A DNA stretch of 12,973 nucleotides from Candidatus Zixiibacteriota bacterium (GCA_041742355.1 JBGSIV010000272.1:1-12973); one strand, 5' to 3'; shown: positions 1,123 through 10,702, counted from the stretch's first letter. Numbers and translations are program-made. The notes: generated by a model from the letters alone, not told the origin.

Positions 1123-3399
1123 ATGGTTCAACAACTCGCAAAACTGGGCATGGCGTCAGTGCTGATGCTATGCCTGTGCGCTGCGGCATTCGCGGCACAG
1201 ACAGTGGTAATTGACTCGATCACTCTGGACGCACCGTCCTGGGGCTTGGGAGTCGATGATTTCAACGTCGACGACAGCCTGGACTTCGTCGTTCGTTGCA
1301 CAGACGGCAATGTGTACCTGTACACCAATGTTGGTTCACATTCGTTTTCGAAGTCAGTTATCGCATCCGGCATTGCAACGGACGCCGGCGACATGGGAAC
1401 AGGTGACTTCAACAGCGACGGTTGGCCCGACATAGCACTCACGAATTTCTCCGATACCGTCCACCTCTTGATTAGCGACGGCCTTGGCGGGTTCCTGCAA
1501 GACGTCTGCCCCACCCCCCTCGATGATCTGATCGGAACCGACTGCGCCGACATCGATGGCGATGGCGATATGGACATGGCCGTACTGGCCTACAATGCCG
1601 CAACTGTTCTGCTTTTCGCGGGGGACGGTGCCGGCCACTTCACTTTCGTCGACAGCTTCCACGTTGATCCGGGCGTTCCCATGTCCGGGGGAATCCCGGG
1701 CCTGATGGCCGGCGATTTCGATGGAGACGGTACAATCGATCTTATCGTCGGTCAGGACGATGACGTTCTTCCTGGTGACGCGTGGCTGTATACGGGCGAC
1801 GGCGCGTTTCACTTTACATTCGCAGGCAGAGTATACGACACCAACCCCGCTGACTCCACGGGGACAAATCGAGCTGGCGGGGGGGGCGGCGATGCTTTCG
1901 ACTTTACTGGAGACGGCGTGATAGACATAATCACCTCCAGCCAGACCGAGTATCCTGAGGACGGGGGCGCAATGGTCCTCTTCGTCGGCCATGGATCCCC
2001 CTCGTTCGGTTCGTCAGACACGTTGGTCGTCGCATCGAGCAACCTGAATATTGCGGCCGCGCCACCCCTGAACTACACCGGCCCAGATTGCTTAGCGATC
2101 GCCGCGGGTGCCTTGGGACCAACCGCCTATCTGGTTTGGTTTGAACATCCCTTTCTTACCTTCCCCGCAGCAAGCCCGTGCGATAATCAACCCGTCAGTC
2201 AGCCCGTCGTAATCACTCTTCCTCAACCCATCAACGGCGGCATGATCCCCTTCAAACTCCCGCCAGATGTCACCGTTACAGGCATAAGCACTACCGGCCT
2301 TGTAACTGAGGGATGGGAGATCGAGATCGACAGACTGAGTTGCCCCGGCGCCTGGGCGGTCGGCTTCTACAGTTTCACGGCGCCCTCGATTCCTGCCGGC
2401 ACACATACCATATTCAATATCGAGTTAGATATAGATATGTGTGGGCAAGCTGATCTCTTCATTCAGTGGGATACCGCATGCATGGGCAACGAGAGCCATC
2501 AACTCGTGCTCGCGGACACGTCTGATCACGATCTGTCCTGCACCTTCACTCCCGGACTCGATTCAACCATGGTCTACGGGTACATCCCTGGTGATTTCAA
2601 CGGCGACGGCACAGTAAATATCTCTGATGTTACCCCTCTGGTGAACTTCCTCTTCAAGAGTGGTCCCGCGGCATGCATCAAAGCGGCGGCCGATGCTAAT
2701 CGCGACAGTAGAGTGACCGTCAGTGACCTAACATTCCTGATCAGCTTCCTCTTCAAGGGTGGCCCCGCGCCGATCTGCGGCCCGCTCGAGCAACTCGCCG
2801 AAAAACTGGCCCCAGGCGGCCTGCTCACAGCCACCTTTGATGGAACGCAGACGACACTCACCCTCAGAGCCGACGCTTCCCTCCGTGGTCTCCAGGTCAC
2901 TCTCGGAGGTACAGGCATCCCGACCCCGATCAGCCTGGTCGATCCCCGGCTGGAGCTGATCGACGGCACCACGACGATCGGCCTGCTCGACCTCGAGGGG
3001 GACGCGGTTATCGAAGCCGGACAGCACGACATCATTCGCATCCCCGGTGAGTGGTCTGTGGTCGAAGCTTACGGATCGAATCTGAACCACCACGATGTTC
3101 TCCTGACTCCGGCGGCGAGCATCACCACCCTGCCGACTGAGTTCGTCCTCAACCAGAACTTCCCCAACCCCTTCAACCCGACCACCGAGATCAGCTTCTC
3201 ACTGCCCAACGCGGGAGAAATCAGGCTGGAGGTATTCAACATGCTCGGCCAGAAGGTAGCCACCCTCATATCCGGCAACCTCGACGCCGGCAACCACACC
3301 GTGACCTGGGATGCCTCGAACCAGTCGAGCGGCGTCTATCTCTATCGCCTGGAGGCCGGGACGTACACCGACACCAAGAAGATGCTCCTACTCAAGTAG
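1123..3399 (+). CDS. Secreted multidomain protein: signal peptide, FG-GAP/VCBS repeats, cohesin-like domain, type I dockerin, C-terminal T9SS-type-A/FlgD-like sorting domain
   Basis: SD GGAGGA at 1109-1114. Signal peptide ending 'AAFA'. Repeats DFNVDDSLDF, GDFNSDGWPDI, ADIDGDGDMDM, GDFDGDGTIDL, DFTGDGVIDI. Beta-sandwich segment at ~2152-2550. Duplicated dockerin 'GDFNGDGTVNISDVTPLVNFLF...ADANRDSRVTVSDLTFLISFLF' at ~2587-2778. CTD 'LPTEFVLNQNFPNPFNPTTEISF...SGVYLYRL...KKMLLLK' at ~3130-3399. Confidence 0.9.
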   Translation: MVQQLAKLGMASVLMLCLCAAAFAAQTVVIDSITLDAPSWGLGVDDFNVDDSLDFVVRCTDGNVYLYTNVGSHSFSKSVIASGIATDAGDMGTGDFNSDGWPDIALTNFSDTVHLLISDGLGGFLQDVCPTPLDDLIGTDCADIDGDGDMDMAVLAYNAATVLLFAGDGAGHFTFVDSFHVDPGVPMSGGIPGLMAGDFDGDGTIDLIVGQDDDVLPGDAWLYTGDGAFHFTFAGRVYDTNPADSTGTNRAGGGGGDAFDFTGDGVIDIITSSQTEYPEDGGAMVLFVGHGSPSFGSSDTLVVASSNLNIAAAPPLNYTGPDCLAIAAGALGPTAYLVWFEHPFLTFPAASPCDNQPVSQPVVITLPQPINGGMIPFKLPPDVTVTGISTTGLVTEGWEIEIDRLSCPGAWAVGFYSFTAPSIPAGTHTIFNIELDIDMCGQADLFIQWDTACMGNESHQLVLADTSDHDLSCTFTPGLDSTMVYGYIPGDFNGDGTVNISDVTPLVNFLFKSGPAACIKAAADANRDSRVTVSDLTFLISFLFKGGPAPICGPLEQLAEKLAPGGLLTATFDGTQTTLTLRADASLRGLQVTLGGTGIPTPISLVDPRLELIDGTTTIGLLDLEGDAVIEAGQHDIIRIPGEWSVVEAYGSNLNHHDVLLTPAASITTLPTEFVLNQNFPNPFNPTTEISFSLPNAGEIRLEVFNMLGQKVATLISGNLDAGNHTVTWDASNQSSGVYLYRLEAGTYTDTKKMLLLK

Positions 3400-3553: not shown

Positions 3554-3640
3554 TGGTGCCGAAGGGGGGACTCGAACCCCCACATCCTTGCGGATACTGC
3601 GCCCTGAACGCAGCGCGTCTACCAGTTTCACCACTTCGGC
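3554..3640 (-). tRNA. tRNA-Leu (anticodon CAG), 87 nt, encoded CCA
   Basis: GCCGAAGTGGTGAAACTGGTAGACGCGCTGCGTTCAGGGCGCAGTATCCGCAAGGATGTGGGGGTTCGAGTCCCCCCTTCGGCACCA. Acceptor stem GCCGAAG/CTTCGGC; anticodon arm CTGCG-TTCAGGG-CGCAG; long variable arm ATCC-GCAA-GGAT; T-loop GTTCGAG; discriminator A. Confidence 0.98.
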
Positions 3641-4075: not shown

Positions 4076-6685
4076 ATGTACACCCATATGGGAACCGACA
4101 TCTCTGAACGGGTCGGCGAAACAGTCGAACGACCCGAGAACCTTCGCCACCAGTGGCGCGACATTCTCGTGGTCCTCATCCCCCTCGCCCTCTACGTCGC
4201 GCTGGCGTACCCGCTGCGGGCGTGGCTGATCGACGACGCCGGGATCACGTTCGCCTACGCGCGCAACCTCGCGCTCGGCCACGGCCTCGTGTCGCAGCCC
4301 GGCGCGATGCCGGTCGAGGGGTACTCCAACACGCTCTGGCTCCTCCTCATGGTTCCGTTCCTCAAATTCGGCTGGTTCGACCTCTACCTCACGCCGAAGC
4401 TCCTCGGCCTCGGCTGCATGCTGATCACGTTCTACCTGATCTACCGCTCAGTCATTCGCATAACGATCGGCTCCCGGATCGCCGCGTTCCTCGCGCTGGT
4501 GCTCATCGCCGCCAACGCCTCGTTCGTCATCTGGACCACCTCGGGCCTTGAGAACCCGCTCTTCGTGCTCCTGATCGCCGCACTGTTTCTGCTGACCCTG
4601 CGCTATATCGAACGCAACCATACGTCGGTCTGGTATCCGCTCGGCGCCGCGCTCATTGTTTTCGCCGCCGCGCTCACCCGTCCCGATGGGATCGCCTACG
4701 CCGTGATCTTCCCGATGGTGATCGTTCTGCGGCCGTTCTCAATGACGGGCGAGCTGGTCGGCCGCAAGCTGTCGCACCTGTTGCAATATCTGCTCTACCT
4801 CGGCCTGTGTGCCGGCGGGTTCCTCTATTTCCGCCAGTGGTATTTCAGCGACTGGCTGCCGAACACGTACTATGCCAAGGGGGGGCCGGAGCAACGTTTC
4901 CTCATGCCGGCGCTGACGCTGCAGGGGGACTACCTCGCCAAAGCCCGCGAGCTGCTTTCCTCGCTCTACGGCGATCTCTGGTGGGCGGTGGTGGTCCTTC
5001 TCCTTTTCGCGGGGATCGCCGCGCTTCTCTCCCGGATCGTGCGGGTCCGGCCGCTGCTGGTTGCGGCCGCGTTTGTTTTTGTCGGCTACTATGTCTACCT
5101 GATTATGCCGAACGACTGGATGGGGGAGTTCCGCTTCGCCACGCCGTTCTTTATGCTCTTCCACGCCCTGGTCGGCTCGGTGCTCTTCCTGTGGATGAAC
5201 AATATCACCGGCACCCGCCGCATGCTGAACACGCTCCTGATTGTGCTCGGCGGGATTCTTCTCTATGGCACAGCCCAGGAACACCGTCCGCGCCTTGAGG
5301 CCGTGTACACCGCGCCCCCGGTTTCCTTTGATCGGGTCGCGGGTGAATATGCCGTTCGTTACGACAACTATGCCTCGGCCCTCGGAATACAGAACGGCTC
5401 GGTTCTCCTGCCCGATGTCGGCGCCACGCTGTGGTTCTCCAGGCTCCGGGTCTACGACCTGGGACGCTTGACTGACCGGGAGATCGCGCGCACTCTCCAC
5501 AAGGACCAGAAGCGGTTTTACGATTATGTTTTCACTCGCATCAAGCCGACGTTCATTCACACCCACGGCTCCTGGACCAACCGGGCGGCGTTCGAGGATG
5601 ATCCGCGTTTCCGCCAGCAGTATGTCGCGATCAAGGAATGGCCCGACAAGTGGGTGAAGGAGTTTAACGGGCGCAACCTCATGTCCGGGGATTACGTCCG
5701 TCGCGATGCGATTGTGGGACGGGAAGATCTGGTCAGGGACCTGGGCACGCTGGACGCGGTCCCGCCTCCTCCCGCGGCCAAACCGGCTCCGGCCGATACC
5801 GCTTCTTTCCTCGGCGCCCATCGCCTGCCGCAGGGGTTTGTCGAATTGTCCGGGCGCGCCCTGCCGAATACGAGAGTCGATCTGGCCGCGGCTATCGCCT
5901 ACCGCAGCCCGCTGGATGCCGACAGCATCGAGTTGATCGAGTACGGCGGTTCGCTCCACTACCAGCCGGTTGAACTGGCGCATCGCTGCTACCATTTTAT
6001 GGGGGCGTATTTGATCAACGGCGACACAGCCCTCCTGCGCCGGACCGCCAGGTACCTGCGCAAGACGATGGAGCTGTCCCGCGCGGTCGGCGACGCCTCG
6101 TATGTCCCGTACAGTTTCGACAAGCGCGTCCACCGCGACGAGCCGACGGTTCTGAAGGCGCCATGGTATTCCGGCATGGCCCAGGGGGAACTTCTCGGCG
6201 CCAGCATGCGTCTCTGGGAGTTCACCGGCGACACCGCGTTTCTGAACTACGGGCACCGCCTGTTCAACTCGCTCCTTCGCGTTCGCGGCGGGGATGGCCC
6301 GTGGGTGACCCAGGTCGACGGCTCCGGCTATTTCTGGATTGAGGAGTACCCGCACGACGAGACGCCGGACCTGACGCTCAACGGGTACATCGCCGCGGTG
6401 TTCGGCGTTTATGATTACTACCGGCTCACCAAATCCGACTCGGCCCTGGGGCTCTATGAAGCCTGCCTGACGACGCTCAAGCACTATCTCCCCCAATACC
6501 GCCGCCCGGGGGATTACAGCTACTACTGTCTCGGCCACCGCTCGCCCGCGAACGCCGACTACCACAATCTCCACGTCAGCATGTGCGGGCATCTCCACCG
6601 CATGACGGGCGACGAATTCTTCAGGACCATGGCGGAGGAACTCCGGAGTGACACGCCGCCGCTGCGAACCGATCTGGAGGAGTGA
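4076..6685 (+). CDS. Multi-TM GT-C-fold glycosyltransferase (AftB/PMT-like) fused to a C-terminal D-glucuronyl C5-epimerase-like domain
   Basis: N-terminal part: 'IDDAGITFAYARNLALGHGL...PVEGYSNTLW', 'SGLENPL', 'LTRPDG', 'LPNTYYAK', 'DWMGEFRF', many hydrophobic helices, then soluble 'PDVGA...VYDLGRLTDREIAR'. Linker PPPPAAKPAPAD at 5762-5797. C-terminal part: 'PWYSGMAQG' (6161), 'WIEEYP' (6335-6352), 'LNGYIAAVFGVYDY', 'LKHYLPQY', 'YHNLH' (6560-6574). An alternative start is ATG 4088. Confidence 0.85.
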   Translation: MYTHMGTDISERVGETVERPENLRHQWRDILVVLIPLALYVALAYPLRAWLIDDAGITFAYARNLALGHGLVSQPGAMPVEGYSNTLWLLLMVPFLKFGWFDLYLTPKLLGLGCMLITFYLIYRSVIRITIGSRIAAFLALVLIAANASFVIWTTSGLENPLFVLLIAALFLLTLRYIERNHTSVWYPLGAALIVFAAALTRPDGIAYAVIFPMVIVLRPFSMTGELVGRKLSHLLQYLLYLGLCAGGFLYFRQWYFSDWLPNTYYAKGGPEQRFLMPALTLQGDYLAKARELLSSLYGDLWWAVVVLLLFAGIAALLSRIVRVRPLLVAAAFVFVGYYVYLIMPNDWMGEFRFATPFFMLFHALVGSVLFLWMNNITGTRRMLNTLLIVLGGILLYGTAQEHRPRLEAVYTAPPVSFDRVAGEYAVRYDNYASALGIQNGSVLLPDVGATLWFSRLRVYDLGRLTDREIARTLHKDQKRFYDYVFTRIKPTFIHTHGSWTNRAAFEDDPRFRQQYVAIKEWPDKWVKEFNGRNLMSGDYVRRDAIVGREDLVRDLGTLDAVPPPPAAKPAPADTASFLGAHRLPQGFVELSGRALPNTRVDLAAAIAYRSPLDADSIELIEYGGSLHYQPVELAHRCYHFMGAYLINGDTALLRRTARYLRKTMELSRAVGDASYVPYSFDKRVHRDEPTVLKAPWYSGMAQGELLGASMRLWEFTGDTAFLNYGHRLFNSLLRVRGGDGPWVTQVDGSGYFWIEEYPHDETPDLTLNGYIAAVFGVYDYYRLTKSDSALGLYEACLTTLKHYLPQYRRPGDYSYYCLGHRSPANADYHNLHVSMCGHLHRMTGDEFFRTMAEELRSDTPPLRTDLEE

Positions 6686-6688
6686 GCC

Positions 6689-8191
6689 GTGCCCTCCGAT
6701 CATGATTTCCCCCGCCGCCTCATCGCTGTTCTGAAGTTGGTGGCCGGCGCCGTCGCCGCGGCGTATATCATAATATTCGCGGTCACCGCCATTCTGCGGA
6801 TCACCTATCCGTTCGAACTGGAGTGGATGGAAGGGGCGATGGTTGATCATGTCGCGCGGATCATGCACGGTCTGCCCCTCTATGTCGAACCCAGCGTGGA
6901 CTTTGTCCCGTTCCGTTACACACCGCTGTACTACTATGTCAGCGCCGCCGTGTCGGGTATAACCGGATTCAGCCTGTTTTCTCTGCGGCTTGTATCGGTG
7001 GTGAGTGCAATCGGCGCGTTCGTTTTGCTTTTCCTTTTTGTCCGGCGCGAGACAGGGAGGAACCTCCCGGGTCTGCTGGCCGCCGCGCTGTTCGCCGCCG
7101 CCTATCCGATCACCGGATCGTTTTATGATCTCGCCCGCATCGATTCGCTCTTCATGGTGCTGCTCCTTGCCGCGGCGTATGCGTTCAGGTTTTATCCCTC
7201 GATGCGCGGCGCGATCCTGTCCGGATTGCTCTTTGGTCTCGCATTCCTGACCAAGCAGGCCGCCGGCCCAGTGCTGGCGCTGCTGCTGATTCCGGCTCTC
7301 TTCCTCAACTGGCGGTACACGCTCGTCTGCGGCTTCTCCGCTCTCGTTGTCGCCGGTGGCGCCAGCCTCGCGTTAACTCTCGCCTCCGACGGCTGGTACT
7401 GGTTCTACACAATCGAGCTCGGTGATAATATCTTCCCCACCGAGAGTTTCGTCGCGTCGATCCGCAAGGTCTTTGTCGAGGATCTCCTGCGGAGTTTCCC
7501 GATCGCCGCCCCGCTCGCTTTGGCCGCGCTGGTAGATATAACGCTTCGAGAGGATCGCCGCACCCGCTGGTTTCATCTGTCGTTCGCGGTCGGCCTGATC
7601 GCCATTATCTTTATCGCGCGCATCCACCCCGGCGGCTGGACCAACACGCTGATCCCCGCCTGCGCCGCGATCGCGCTGCTCTTCGGGCTTGCGGTCGGTC
7701 GGCTCGACCTTGCCGCCGACACCTTCCGCGCGGGTGTCCGACAATCGGCTCTGGTTTCCCTCTACCTGCTGGTGATCGTGCAGCTGGCGATGCTCGCCTA
7801 TGATCCGAGGAAGCACCTTCCTTCCGACGCCGACCGGGCCGCAGGGCAGCGGTTTATCGCTCAGATAGAATCGATCGACGGCGACGTGTATGTCCCGCAC
7901 CACGGCTACTATGCCATGCTTGCCGGTAAGAAGACATTCGCGCACTTTCAGGCGATCCGCGACGTGTGGTCATCGCCCGAGCATTCGGCGATCACCCGGG
8001 GTATGACGGGTACCATTCGCGATGCGATCACCGGCCGTCGGTTCGCCGCCATGGTGCTGGATCGGGATTTCTTCATTGAGGAAGTGAGAGCGAATTACAC
8101 GGAGAGCGGGAAGATCTTTGATCGTGGCGAGGTCTTTTTTCCGAGAGCCGGGTGGGCGGTTCGCCCCGAGCGCCTCTACCTTCCCAAATAA
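6689..8191 (+). CDS. Membrane GT-C glycosyltransferase (ArnT/PMT_2-like, GT39/GT83-like)
   Basis: GTG start 3 nt after the upstream stop, with SD GGAGGAG inside the end of that gene. Acidic first loop 'YPFELEWMEG', 'YTPLYYY', 'LRLVS', 'LARIDSL', 'LAFLTKQ', and many TM helices. Confidence 0.85.
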   Translation: MPSDHDFPRRLIAVLKLVAGAVAAAYIIIFAVTAILRITYPFELEWMEGAMVDHVARIMHGLPLYVEPSVDFVPFRYTPLYYYVSAAVSGITGFSLFSLRLVSVVSAIGAFVLLFLFVRRETGRNLPGLLAAALFAAAYPITGSFYDLARIDSLFMVLLLAAAYAFRFYPSMRGAILSGLLFGLAFLTKQAAGPVLALLLIPALFLNWRYTLVCGFSALVVAGGASLALTLASDGWYWFYTIELGDNIFPTESFVASIRKVFVEDLLRSFPIAAPLALAALVDITLREDRRTRWFHLSFAVGLIAIIFIARIHPGGWTNTLIPACAAIALLFGLAVGRLDLAADTFRAGVRQSALVSLYLLVIVQLAMLAYDPRKHLPSDADRAAGQRFIAQIESIDGDVYVPHHGYYAMLAGKKTFAHFQAIRDVWSSPEHSAITRGMTGTIRDAITGRRFAAMVLDRDFFIEEVRANYTESGKIFDRGEVFFPRAGWAVRPERLYLPK

Positions 8192-8200
8192 CCGCCCCCC

Positions 8201-8232
8201 AAAGAACAAAAAGCCGGCGGTGAAGCCGGCTT
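8201..8232 (-). terminator. Intrinsic terminator between the convergent GT and sigma genes (strong on -, possibly bidirectional)
   Basis: AAGCCGGC (8211-8218), 6-nt loop, GCCGGCTT (8225-8232). On the minus strand the hairpin runs into TTTTTGTTCTTT. Confidence 0.8.
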
Positions 8233-8256
8233 CGGAAAATTCGATTCAGTTGTAGG

Positions 8257-9111
8257 TCAGTTCAGGTACGCGCGCAGCGAACGGCTTCGGGAGGCGTGGC
8301 GCAGACGGCGGATCGCTTTTTCCTTGATCTGACGCACTCGTTCCCGGGTCAGGGAGAAGCGCGCGCCAATTTCCTCGAGGGTCAGCGCCTTCTCGTGGTT
8401 CAGACCGAAGTACAGGTTGATCACCTCTGCCTCACGCGGGGTCAGCGAGTCGAGCGCTTTTTCGATTTCCACCCGCAGCGAGTCTTTCAGGAGCGCTTCA
8501 TCGGGGGAGGGCTGGAATTCGTCTTCGAGTACGTCGATGAGCGAATTGTCCTCCGACACCGAGAACGGCGCGTCGAGCGACAGGTGCGAGTTGGAGATCT
8601 TCAGCGTGTCGGCCACTTCGCCCTCGGTGAGTTCGAGCTCCTTGGCGATCTCTTCCGGCGAGGGTTCGCGCCCGAGGCCCTGCTCCAGCCGGCTGGAGAC
8701 TTTGCCGATTTTGTGCAAAGTCCCTACCCGATTGAGCGGGAGGCGCACGATGCGACTCTGCTCGGCCAATGCCTGCAAAATCGCCTGCCGGATCCACCAC
8801 ACCGCGTACGAAATGAACTTGAATCCACGGGTCTCGTCAAACCGCTTGGCCGCTTTGATAAGGCCTATATTGCCTTCGTTAATGAGATCGGCCAGGGACA
8901 GACCCTGATTCTGGTACTGCTTGGCAACCGAGACGACGAAACGCAGATTGGCTTTGGTCAATTTCTCCAGGGCCTTCTTGTCGCCCTGCTTGATTCTCCG
9001 AGCCAGCCGCACCTCTTCGTCGGCGCTGATCAATGGTGTCTCCCCGATCTCGCGCAAGTACAGATCGAGCGATCGGTCCTCATCGCGATACTTGAGGGAT
9101 TGTTTAGCCAC
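8257..9111 (-). CDS. rpoD: RNA polymerase sigma-70 factor, RpoD/SigA family (short FCB-type, no region 1.1)
   Basis: Region 1.2 '[10 protein letters not shown]...EEV'; region 2 '[18 protein letters not shown]...[10 protein letters not shown]...[21 protein letters not shown]'; region 3 'RIVRLP...SLDAP'; region 4.2 'TLEEIG...[13 protein letters not shown]'. GTG start with SD AAGGAG. Confidence 0.93.
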
Positions 9112-9208: not shown

Positions 9209-10702
9209 CTAGGGTCGCAACACCTTACGAGCGATTGTGCCATCCGGCTCCTGCACGATCAGCGGAATCCGCTGTCTCGAGCCGGCCAGCCGGCGAACAA
9301 TCTGCTCCACATCGCCCGGCGCCTTGACTGTCTCGTTGTTTACCTGTAAGATAATCGTACCACGGGCTATCGACGACTGATCGGCCGGCGACCCCGGATA
9401 CACCCGCGAAACGTACACCCCCGGGACATGTTCGGTCGACACCGCCGACGCTATCTCCGGGGTAAAGGTCAGTAAATCCATTCCCATCCACTGGTACTGT
9501 TCGGTATCCGGCGGCTCGGCTGAGGGCGTGCCGGAGGCGAGGAACTGGTCGCGGTCGCCGATGATGGCGCGCGCGGTCTGCCGCGCGCCGTCGCGGAGCA
9601 GTTCCATTTCGATTTCATCGCCGCGGCGTACGGTCGAGACGAGCACGGACAACTGGGCGGCGTTGCCGACCTCGAGGCCGTTAAATTTCACGACGATGTC
9701 GCCGCGTTTGATCCCGGCCCGTTCGGCCGGTGAATTGGCGAAGACCGAATCGATCACCACGCCGCGCACGGCCGACAGGCCCTGCCGTTTGGCTTCGCGT
9801 TCGGTGATATTGTCCAGCCATACCCCGAGCCAGCCGCGCTGCGGCTTGCCCACCTCGATCAGGTCGGGCACGATGGCCCGGGCGAGGTTGATGGGAATGG
9901 CGAAACCAATGCCGACCGATCCGCCTGTCGGGGACGAAATCGCCGCGTTTACCCCGATGCACTCGCCGCGGAGATTGAGGAGCGGTCCGCCGGAGTTGCC
10001 CGGGTTGATGGAGGCATCGGTCTGTATGTAGTACTGGTACTCCGGGGTTTCCCGGCCGAAATTGAGCTGGCTGCGCCCCACCGCGGAGATGACACCGACG
10101 GTCACGGAGCGGTCCAGTCCCTGCTGCGGGAACGGATTGCCGATCGCGATGGCCCAATCCCCGACTTTCAACTTGTCCGAATCGCCGAACGGGATCACGG
10201 TCACGTCATGCTCCGGCTCAACCTTGATTACCGCCAGGTCGGTTTCGGGATCGGCGCCGACCAGTTTTGCTTCATATTCAAACCCCGTCGCCGTGCGCAC
10301 CGTCATTTCCTGTGCGCCCTGCACCACGTGGTTGTTGGTCAAAATGTAGCCGTCCTGGCGGAAGAAGAATCCGCTGCCGGACGATGTTGCCATGCCGGCG
10401 CGCTGGTGCCACCAGGGGAGGCTCTGGTCCTGCGACCGGGCCGAGATATTCACCACGGCGTTCTGCACCTGCTCGACCACGGCGACGAACGGCGATTCGT
10501 ACTCGCCGTCGCGCTCCACGACCGGATAAACGCCGAACGCCGTTCCGTTGACGGGCGACTGCGCTACCGATTTCGGGGAAAGATCGAGACCGGACGAGAT
10601 CAGAATGCCGACAGCCACGCATACGACCGCCCCGAACCCGACGGCGATCGACGTGAACCCCCTGGAGATGTTTTTCTGCGGGGAGCGGACGGTCCTATCC
10701 AA
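9209..10702 (-). CDS. htrA: HtrA/DegP/DegQ (Do family) serine endoprotease with N-terminal anchor and two PDZ domains
   Basis: 'GSGFF...ILTNNHVV' (His), 'DLAVIK' (Asp), 'IQTDASINPGNSGGPL' (Ser). PDZ1 'RGWLGV...SPAERAGIKRGD'; PDZ2 'WMGM...GSPADQSSI'. TTG start with SD GGAGG 10 nt upstream. Confidence 0.95.
   Translation of the reverse strand: MDRTVRSPQKNISRGFTSIAVGFGAVVCVAVGILISSGLDLSPKSVAQSPVNGTAFGVYPVVERDGEYESPFVAVVEQVQNAVVNISARSQDQSLPWWHQRAGMATSSGSGFFFRQDGYILTNNHVVQGAQEMTVRTATGFEYEAKLVGADPETDLAVIKVEPEHDVTVIPFGDSDKLKVGDWAIAIGNPFPQQGLDRSVTVGVISAVGRSQLNFGRETPEYQYYIQTDASINPGNSGGPLLNLRGECIGVNAAISSPTGGSVGIGFAIPINLARAIVPDLIEVGKPQRGWLGVWLDNITEREAKRQGLSAVRGVVIDSVFANSPAERAGIKRGDIVVKFNGLEVGNAAQLSVLVSTVRRGDEIEMELLRDGARQTARAIIGDRDQFLASGTPSAEPPDTEQYQWMGMDLLTFTPEIASAVSTEHVPGVYVSRVYPGSPADQSSIARGTIILQVNNETVKAPGDVEQIVRRLAGSRQRIPLIVQEPDGTIARKVLRP

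Follow-up and report, generated by a model that had tools for sequence, protein, structure and literature searches.

An AftB-like GT-C transferase joined to a C5-epimerase-like domain in a single open reading frame of a probable Zixibacteria genome

Animal D-glucuronyl C5-epimerase (GLCE) and its kin take the C5 proton from a uronate residue of a polymer and put a proton back on the opposite face. The catalytic residues of GLCE are given as E499, Y500, N510, Y560, and Y578 in the accessible text of PMC13308652, which counts one characterized bacterial D-glucuronyl C5-epimerase, and the portion available of PMC12834895 describes the bacterial RED-C5epi as lower in selectivity and inefficient. 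Mycobacterial AftB, as laid out in the accessible text of PMC12041299, has 11 helices, three juxtamembrane loops, and a periplasmic cap, with D62 as the catalytic residue, D62, T91, E172, R221, T274, and R372 as donor-binding residues, and E172 contacting the C5 hydroxyl of an arabinofuranose analogue. Here, we describe a gene, P0001, in which relatives of both proteins are joined. It occupies positions 4076 to 6685 (+ strand) of a 12,973-nucleotide stretch, JBGSIV010000272.1 (the window), from contig C272 of a 4.37-Mb, 94%-complete genome (G000) whose phylum is probably Zixibacteria, the closest homologue carrying the label candidate division Zixibacteria.

P0001 is one open frame of 869 codons without interruption, with an AftB-like GT-C glycosyltransferase (GT) at its N terminus and a C5-epim_C domain at its C terminus. 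The combination of these two known enzyme classes is apparently undescribed and, judged from sequence, functional-looking. An earlier note on the window had proposed a GT-C transferase fused to a "heparan-type" epimerase and knew of no description of such a fusion; in the literature searched, which covered few subscription papers, we likewise found nothing on a GT-C/C5-epimerase architecture or on such enzymes in Zixibacteria. The uninterrupted frame and its motifs are as that note had them, with D53-D54, PPPPAAKPAPAD from residue 563, WYSGMAQG from 697, WIEEYP from 754, LNG from 768, YSYYCL from 814, and YHNLH from 829.

The fusion is not an assembly chimera. Its orthologue in another species of the same genus (G002) is collinear across the junction, with 62% identity over amino acids (aa) 1 to 860 and the same MYTH start, and the cluster holding the G002 protein comprises five sequences, the representative being found on 18 contigs. 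One contig from X1, which may be the source sample, covers positions 4749 to 6763, junction included, with zero differences, and two overlapping contigs from X2, a data set of the same study as X1, cover the linker. P0001 itself is recorded on one contig only, as would be expected if a chimera or frameshift artifact had fused two genes, but with the identical junction in a second species and on these contigs such an artifact, which the earlier note had allowed for, is hardly credible.

The N-terminal 560 aa are a GT-C by profile and by fold, closest in sequence to AftB. The GT-C(A) domain spans aa 23 to 559 (positions 4142 to 5752, +). An AlphaFold2 model built with 119 sequences (pLDDT 94) has 11 membrane helices, juxtamembrane helices in loops 1, 3, and 7 (residues 48 to 104, 148 to 159, and 258 to 302), and a C-terminal alpha/beta cap (aa ~401 to 559); a single-sequence fold of the whole protein reached a pLDDT of 40 and was not used. 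No Pfam or NCBIfam match to this part emerged from the protein scan, nor any match from a phmmer search of the GT half against the PDB, and a genome-level PMT_2 search matched it below cut-off (E 1.1e-4). The 119-sequence GT profile matched a single PDB sequence, AftB (E 8e-7), and the top Foldseek match of the model was AftB 9dlf (E 3.5e-8, 18% identity), in line with the GT-C assignment of the earlier note. Aligned with VIA-align to Pmt, OST, AftB, and ArnT, the model scores Z 19 to 25 and displays the seven-helix core of GT-C class A, with D54 opening the helix at 54 to 66 (juxtamembrane helix 1) as the acidic tip of that class.

The putative active site follows AftB closely. Both residues of the DD motif (D53-D54, positions 4232 to 4237, +) are kept in 119 of 119 aligned sequences, and D54 corresponds to the catalytic D62 of AftB. 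In the profile alignment, off which the AftB residue numbers were counted, D62, T91, E172, R221, and T274 pair with D54, S84, E159, R202, and T264, the threonine at position 91 being a serine here, and these five are conserved in 115 to 119 of the 119 sequences. AftB R372 lies beyond the aligned stretch, and the invariant R353 is its likely counterpart by position.

The C-terminal half is a C5-epimerase-like helical domain (aa 577 to 860, positions 5804 to 6655, +). Pfam C5-epim_C (PF06662) scores 113.8 bits against a gathering cut-off of 23.3 (E 8.9e-33) on aa 681 to 855 (positions 6116 to 6640), bearing out the domain call of the earlier note, and a 102-sequence epimerase profile finds human and zebrafish GLCE as the best and only clear matches in the PDB (E 7.7e-30). 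GH76 (3e-6), cellobiose 2-epimerase/AGE (0.002), and YteR GH88/105 (0.013) are all far behind, none of these helical barrels being a better match, and no lyase is among the PDB matches of the profile. The match is limited to GLCE chain residues 346 to 517 of 527, the C-terminal helical part; the N-terminal beta-hairpin (dimer) and beta-sandwich of GLCE are missing, the 290-aa domain standing directly after the linker. The catalytic set is nevertheless complete, as the earlier note had it: E757, Y758, N769, Y817, and Y829 (positions 6344 to 6562, +) align through 6hzz, with GLCE numbering counted with an offset of 90, to E499, Y500, N510, Y560, and Y578. The 6i01 sequence has F instead of the wild-type residue at the position equivalent to Y829. 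As a separate observation, the position of Y758 is Phe in the stand-alone epimerases of two other genomes, G001 and G003 (L045:1330-2358 and L013:785-1918), and in 10 of 120 homologues.

Between the halves lies a Pro/Ala linker (aa 563 to 574, positions 5762 to 5797, +), at the place of the signal peptide, lipobox Cys, and tether of stand-alone homologues. By our own heuristic, 65 of the 120 epimerase homologues listed begin with a lipobox-like Cys, 30 with another hydrophobic N terminus, and 25, many of them truncated, with neither. Because the joint lies where homologues have signal peptide and tether, the GT-C appears to have taken over the role of the lipid anchor of the epimerase. The GT topology predicts that the epimerase domain faces the periplasm, as the earlier note proposed, and the exported homologues agree; a cytoplasmic location was rejected.

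How the fused domain has fared since P0001 and G002 parted can be read from 41 columns that 90% or more of the stand-alone homologues keep. The two epimerase domains are sisters (100/97), with branches of 0.14 and 1.56, respectively, and altered columns number 1 of 41 in P0001, 16 of 41 in G002, and 0 to 4 in stand-alone proteins, the sole altered column of P0001 being altered in G002 also. The short branch and the single alteration indicate continued selection on the epimerase site in the P0001 lineage, whereas the G002 domain is without N769, Y817, Y829, H830, and H833. Between the GT halves, dN/dS is 0.23, at a synonymous divergence of ~1.0 that is near saturation. As the GT half was conserved while the G002 epimerase decayed, the GT works without the epimerase in the sister species. 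The dead G002 domain is still an open frame of ~290 codons (L024:8976-11561), with a third-position GC content of 0.73, down from 0.83, and in neutral simulation the frame stays open in 0.3 to 5% of runs; one explanation may be that its translation is coupled to that of the gene starting 2 bases downstream.

These comparisons bear on whether the domain is a passenger, or a noncatalytic sugar-binding module, that was joined by chance in a variable slot and is heading for the decay seen in G002. A passenger would fit a fusion present in only 2 of 285 genomes, the five residues lost in G002, and a tRNA-Leu slot in which many GT-C genes have gathered, some accompanied by an epimerase and some not, and another fusion, P0302, resembles simple read-through with its lipobox kept. 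Since the split, however, selection on the active site of P0001 has continued, and we regard a passenger as unlikely.

Fusion of a GT-C-type protein to an epimerase has at least three independent origins. P0302 joins a PMT_2 GT-C to an epimerase and retains the lipobox, although as a single record it could be an artifact. In P0006 and P0312, a 15-helix DUF6541-like protein, presumed to be a GT-C, is joined to an epimerase, and a DUF6541-like gene and an epimerase occur as an unfused pair at L124. With G002 omitted as a long branch, a single origin is rejected both for P0001 with P0302 (p-AU 7e-5) and for all four (p-AU 7e-12). Fusions of an epimerase to a cytoplasmic-type GT4 also occur (P0010, P0012, P0346, P0417, and P0425). 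A 482-aa frame in G095 proved to be an epimerase with a nonhomologous upstream extension, and so no fusion. When GT and epimerase homologues were aligned jointly, the two domains came out misaligned, and that alignment was discarded.

Within the phylum, the C5-epim_C domain is found in 86 of 285 genomes, and only 2 of 94 domain matches, those in G000 and G002, lie in frames longer than 500 aa. The same slot holds a stand-alone epimerase lipoprotein in the other two genomes of the genus and an unfused GT of the AftB-like fusion family in G011, G025, and G031. A word-indexed search with the epimerase region missed the decayed orthologue P0059, making its fusion counts lower bounds; in a metagenome scan, none of the 13 loci recovered had both halves, and the GT-C clusters obtained from the ESM Atlas were all unfused. 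We scanned 1.5-kb flanks at 32 phylum loci (for each genome its best match, plus a few others) and found an adjacent GT-C Pfam gene at 13 and another multi-helix gene at 6. Six of these 13 pairings represent a single group of orthologues, located between hutU and hutI in a second slot. The partners come from unrelated GT-C groups, namely AftA-like, AftB-like, and several PMT_2 groups; as background, the genome has nine PMT_2 matches and four matches to the fusion GT profile among ~3,800 frames. Among the loci fetched, the GT family of the fusion adjoins an epimerase only in the two fusions. To look outside the phylum, we took 80 loci, dropped 24 that their label or our own judgment placed within it, and scanned the neighbors of 45 of the remaining 56; 13 of the 45 stand beside GT2/GT4, Wzx, Wzy, Wzi, WecB, Wzt, phosphoglycosyltransferase, or DUF6541 genes.

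We propose, with slightly more belief than doubt, that P0001 is a periplasmic glycan-tailoring protein made from two neighboring genes, with the GT-C as anchor. The 11-helix GT-C would draw on a sugar linked to polyprenyl phosphate, for which a pentofuranose is the best candidate (ribofuranose, or one of its epimers, such as arabinofuranose), and the D54 active site would put the pentose on an already exported surface glycan. Its periplasmic cap would lead into the GLCE-type domain, which would invert C5 of uronic acid residues within the polymer, turning glucuronic acid (GlcA) into iduronic acid (IdoA) or performing the same chemistry on another uronate. A GT-C in place of a signal peptide and lipid anchor would bring export, tethering, and co-expression, and both activities would probably act on the same glycan class, with no obligate two-step machine. 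What the analysis shows is the architecture, the fold of the GT half, the conserved residues, the independent fusions, and selection on the epimerase domain in the P0001 lineage; the donor sugar, the acceptor, and the chemistry of the epimerase are inferred.

The donor is likely a lipid-linked pentofuranose, not a uronic acid, because a polyprenyl-phosphate phosphoribosyltransferase is encoded in the genome. This decaprenyl-phosphate phosphoribosyltransferase (266 bits against an NCBIfam cut-off of 234; G000:C281:2806-3678, L075:1405-2277, - strand) is unlinked to the fusion locus and is present in 248 of the 285 genomes of the phylum. Three-component pentofuranose systems of this sort, with variation in the donor route, are reported in the accessible text of PMC11127046. 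AftA-like and AftB-like GT-Cs are common in the phylum, which together with the spread of the phosphoribosyltransferase suggests pentofuranose-decorated envelopes phylum-wide, outside the Actinobacteria.

Several results weigh against the proposed tailoring role. VIA-align ranks both Pmt4 (Z 24.9, root mean square deviation [rmsd] 3.8, 353 residues aligned) and OST (Z 22.9) above AftB (Z 21.8, rmsd 3.8, 443 aligned), so the fold establishes GT-C class A only and does not fix the donor. P0001 gives no match to the NCBIfam AftB model NF041481 at E up to 0.1, a model that paralogous GT-Cs of relatives match far under its cut-off. Neither an ALO (DprE1-type) domain nor a GtrA flippase was found in the genome, where DprE2 was not searched for, which leaves room for ribofuranose as the donor, or for an epimer that is made some other way. 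The lipoprotein epimerase subfamily is without a characterized member in the literature searched, and the genome has a second intact stand-alone epimerase (L030:9044-10195, G000:C214). Kinship and shared slots inflate the count of GT-C adjacency, 13 of the 32 phylum loci have no multi-helix neighbor within 1.5 kb, 32 of the 45 outside-phylum loci have no glycan gene among the neighbors scanned, and the epimerase loci L114 and L115 have catabolic neighbors.

The earlier note had gone further, to a bifunctional enzyme making glycosaminoglycan-like surface glycans. Its two-part architecture stands, but tight coupling, with sequential sites in which one step makes the substrate of the other to give an iduronate-containing, glycosaminoglycan-like surface polymer, is in our judgment unlikely. 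Neither predicted active site is damaged and the two face the same side of the membrane, the fused domain is under purifying selection in the P0001 lineage, fusion to GT-C-type proteins recurred three times, and uronates could come from two nucleotide-sugar dehydrogenases that the genome encodes; certain bacterial O-antigens with PF06662 genes in their loci also contain IdoA, as reported in the accessible text of PMC3068255. Set against these are the conserved GT half beside a dead epimerase half in G002, the 118 of the best 120 GT homologues listed that are unfused (525 to 625 aa), a GT family found beside an epimerase, among the loci fetched, in no more than the two fusions, and a GT-C partner that varies by locus. 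The changing partners and the loss in G002 favor tethering or co-expression over an obligate two-step reaction. The labels "heparan-type" and "glycosaminoglycan-like" are not supported, since the helical part of GLCE alone is matched, its other two domains being missing, no match to Sulfotransfer_3 was found in the 94%-complete genome, and the transferase is pentofuranosyl-like.

Epimerases and lyases are related, and the domain might instead cut, through the same abstraction of the C5 proton, as a periplasmic polysaccharide lyase or trimming enzyme whose task would be to remove a uronate polymer or set its length. Export as a lipoprotein, or the presence of a cell-wall-binding, PKD, BACON, or T9SS domain, is frequent among PF06662 homologues and typical of degradative enzymes, and a biosynthetic neighbor is lacking among those scanned at the 32 outside-phylum loci noted above. 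We consider a lyase unlikely, however: all five GLCE catalytic positions are conserved, the PDB matches are lyase free, the informative gene contexts are mostly biosynthetic, and the sole characterized bacterial member, RED65, is an epimerase according to the accessible texts of PMC12834895 and PMC13308652.

If glycan tailoring by P0001 is accepted, it may belong to something wider, and we offer tentatively, as a possibility we rather doubt, that a form of periplasmic tailoring as yet undescribed is widespread in Zixibacteria, other members of the FCB group, and Patescibacteria, with lipoprotein epimerases making L-uronates (iduronate) alongside GT-C pentofuranosyl transferases by means of a ~290-residue stand-alone C5-epimerase fold. 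P0001 and its lipoprotein relatives, with the full GLCE catalytic set in ~290 residues, are candidates for an epimerase consisting of the helical domain alone, of interest for chemo-enzymatic heparin work. Repeated fusion to GT-Cs would mean that the reaction takes place after export, in the periplasm; the envelope of the phylum is then predicted to bear iduronate-like sugars as well as branches of pentofuranose, and the intact P0001 and decayed G002 copies form a predicted natural active/inactive pair. The fusion is narrow in range and dispensable in the sister species, which limits the weight it can bear.

The fusion probably forms one operon with a second GT-C gene (PMT_2, 500 aa; positions 6689 to 8191, +), which begins 3 bases past its stop. 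In G002 the orthologue of this second gene again lies downstream of the fusion, whereas in G012 it is convergent to an epimerase that stands alone. The variable slot is bounded on the left by tRNA-Leu(CAG) (3554 to 3640, -), next to which relatives carry changing GT-C and epimerase genes, and on the right by a conserved sigma-70 factor gene convergent to the fusion (8257 to 9111, -), with htrA (9209 to 10702); a terminator-like hairpin (8210 to 8233) separates the PMT_2 and sigma-70 genes. No sigma-70-type promoter was found on the + strand at the locus, and no RNA holder is listed. Integrase-like genes, judged from the sequence start, adjoin tRNA-Leu(CAG) in G002 (L024:7427-8512) and G001 (L025:2710-3822), consistent with an integration hot spot. 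The window also encodes, at 1123 to 3399, an exported protein of 758 aa that combines FG-GAP repeats with a dockerin domain and has a T9SS-type sorting domain at its C terminus.

Four further observations concern the epimerases and their neighbors. The second epimerase of the genome adjoins a PMT_2 GT-C between hutU and hutI, a slot reused in many relatives. P0002 (616 aa) has a twin-arginine-like N terminus with a lipobox and two tandem C5-epim_C domains. A PF06662 clade that lacks a signal peptide, keeps the catalytic residues, and adjoins MurJ-like flippase genes (L041:4855-5829, L042:9065-9994, and L043:8809-9735) is probably cytoplasmic. A membrane family of eight or nine helices with a TWDD motif and no Pfam match adjoins epimerase genes in three genomes (L045:1-1299, L047:2514-3758, and L018:111-1322) and is possibly another GT-C family.

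Compared with AftB (9DLF/9DLH), which we take to be CAZy family GT89, the GT half shares the 11 helices, three juxtamembrane loops, periplasmic cap, DD motif, and donor-binding residues. It differs in sequence (~18% identity), its cap is smaller and is followed by the epimerase domain, and its host, going by phylum, would be of Gram-negative type and without arabinogalactan. The Citrobacter GT136/PPPRS/flippase system, which attaches pentofuranoses to O-antigens in the periplasm, as far as the accessible text of PMC11127046 describes it, shares a lipid-linked pentose pathway, a GT-C acting after polymerization, and a C-terminal accessory domain. That accessory domain is a carbohydrate-binding module, in contrast to the polymer-type uronate epimerase domain of the fusion, and epimerization in Citrobacter is the work of cytoplasmic SDR enzymes whose substrate is the donor; PPPRS in the fusion genome is unlinked.

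Closer to the epimerase half are the prokaryotic PF06662 proteins, including RED65_08024 of Bermanella marisrubri, which have the same domain, often signal peptides, and glycan clusters; those in the accessible text of PMC3068255 have variable N termini and glycosyltransferase neighbors, with no GT-C fusion described there. Halobacterium Agl32 (accessible texts of PMC12624080 and PMC13308652) sets a prokaryotic precedent for IdoA on a lipid-linked glycan, but it is described in PMC13308652 as lacking the GLCE catalytic residues and acting before membrane crossing, and it is by this description, not by sequence comparison, that we set it apart from the fusion. With animal GLCE (6HZZ, 4PW2), P0001 shares the helical C-terminal domain, the five catalytic residues, and work outside the cytoplasm. 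GLCE has beta-hairpin and beta-sandwich domains, whereas the fusion is without both and is anchored by a GT-C, in a host whose genome has no sign of N-sulfated heparosan or sulfotransferases. If the wider tailoring system that we tentatively offer is real, it would be a bacterial counterpart to the editing of glycosaminoglycans in the Golgi.

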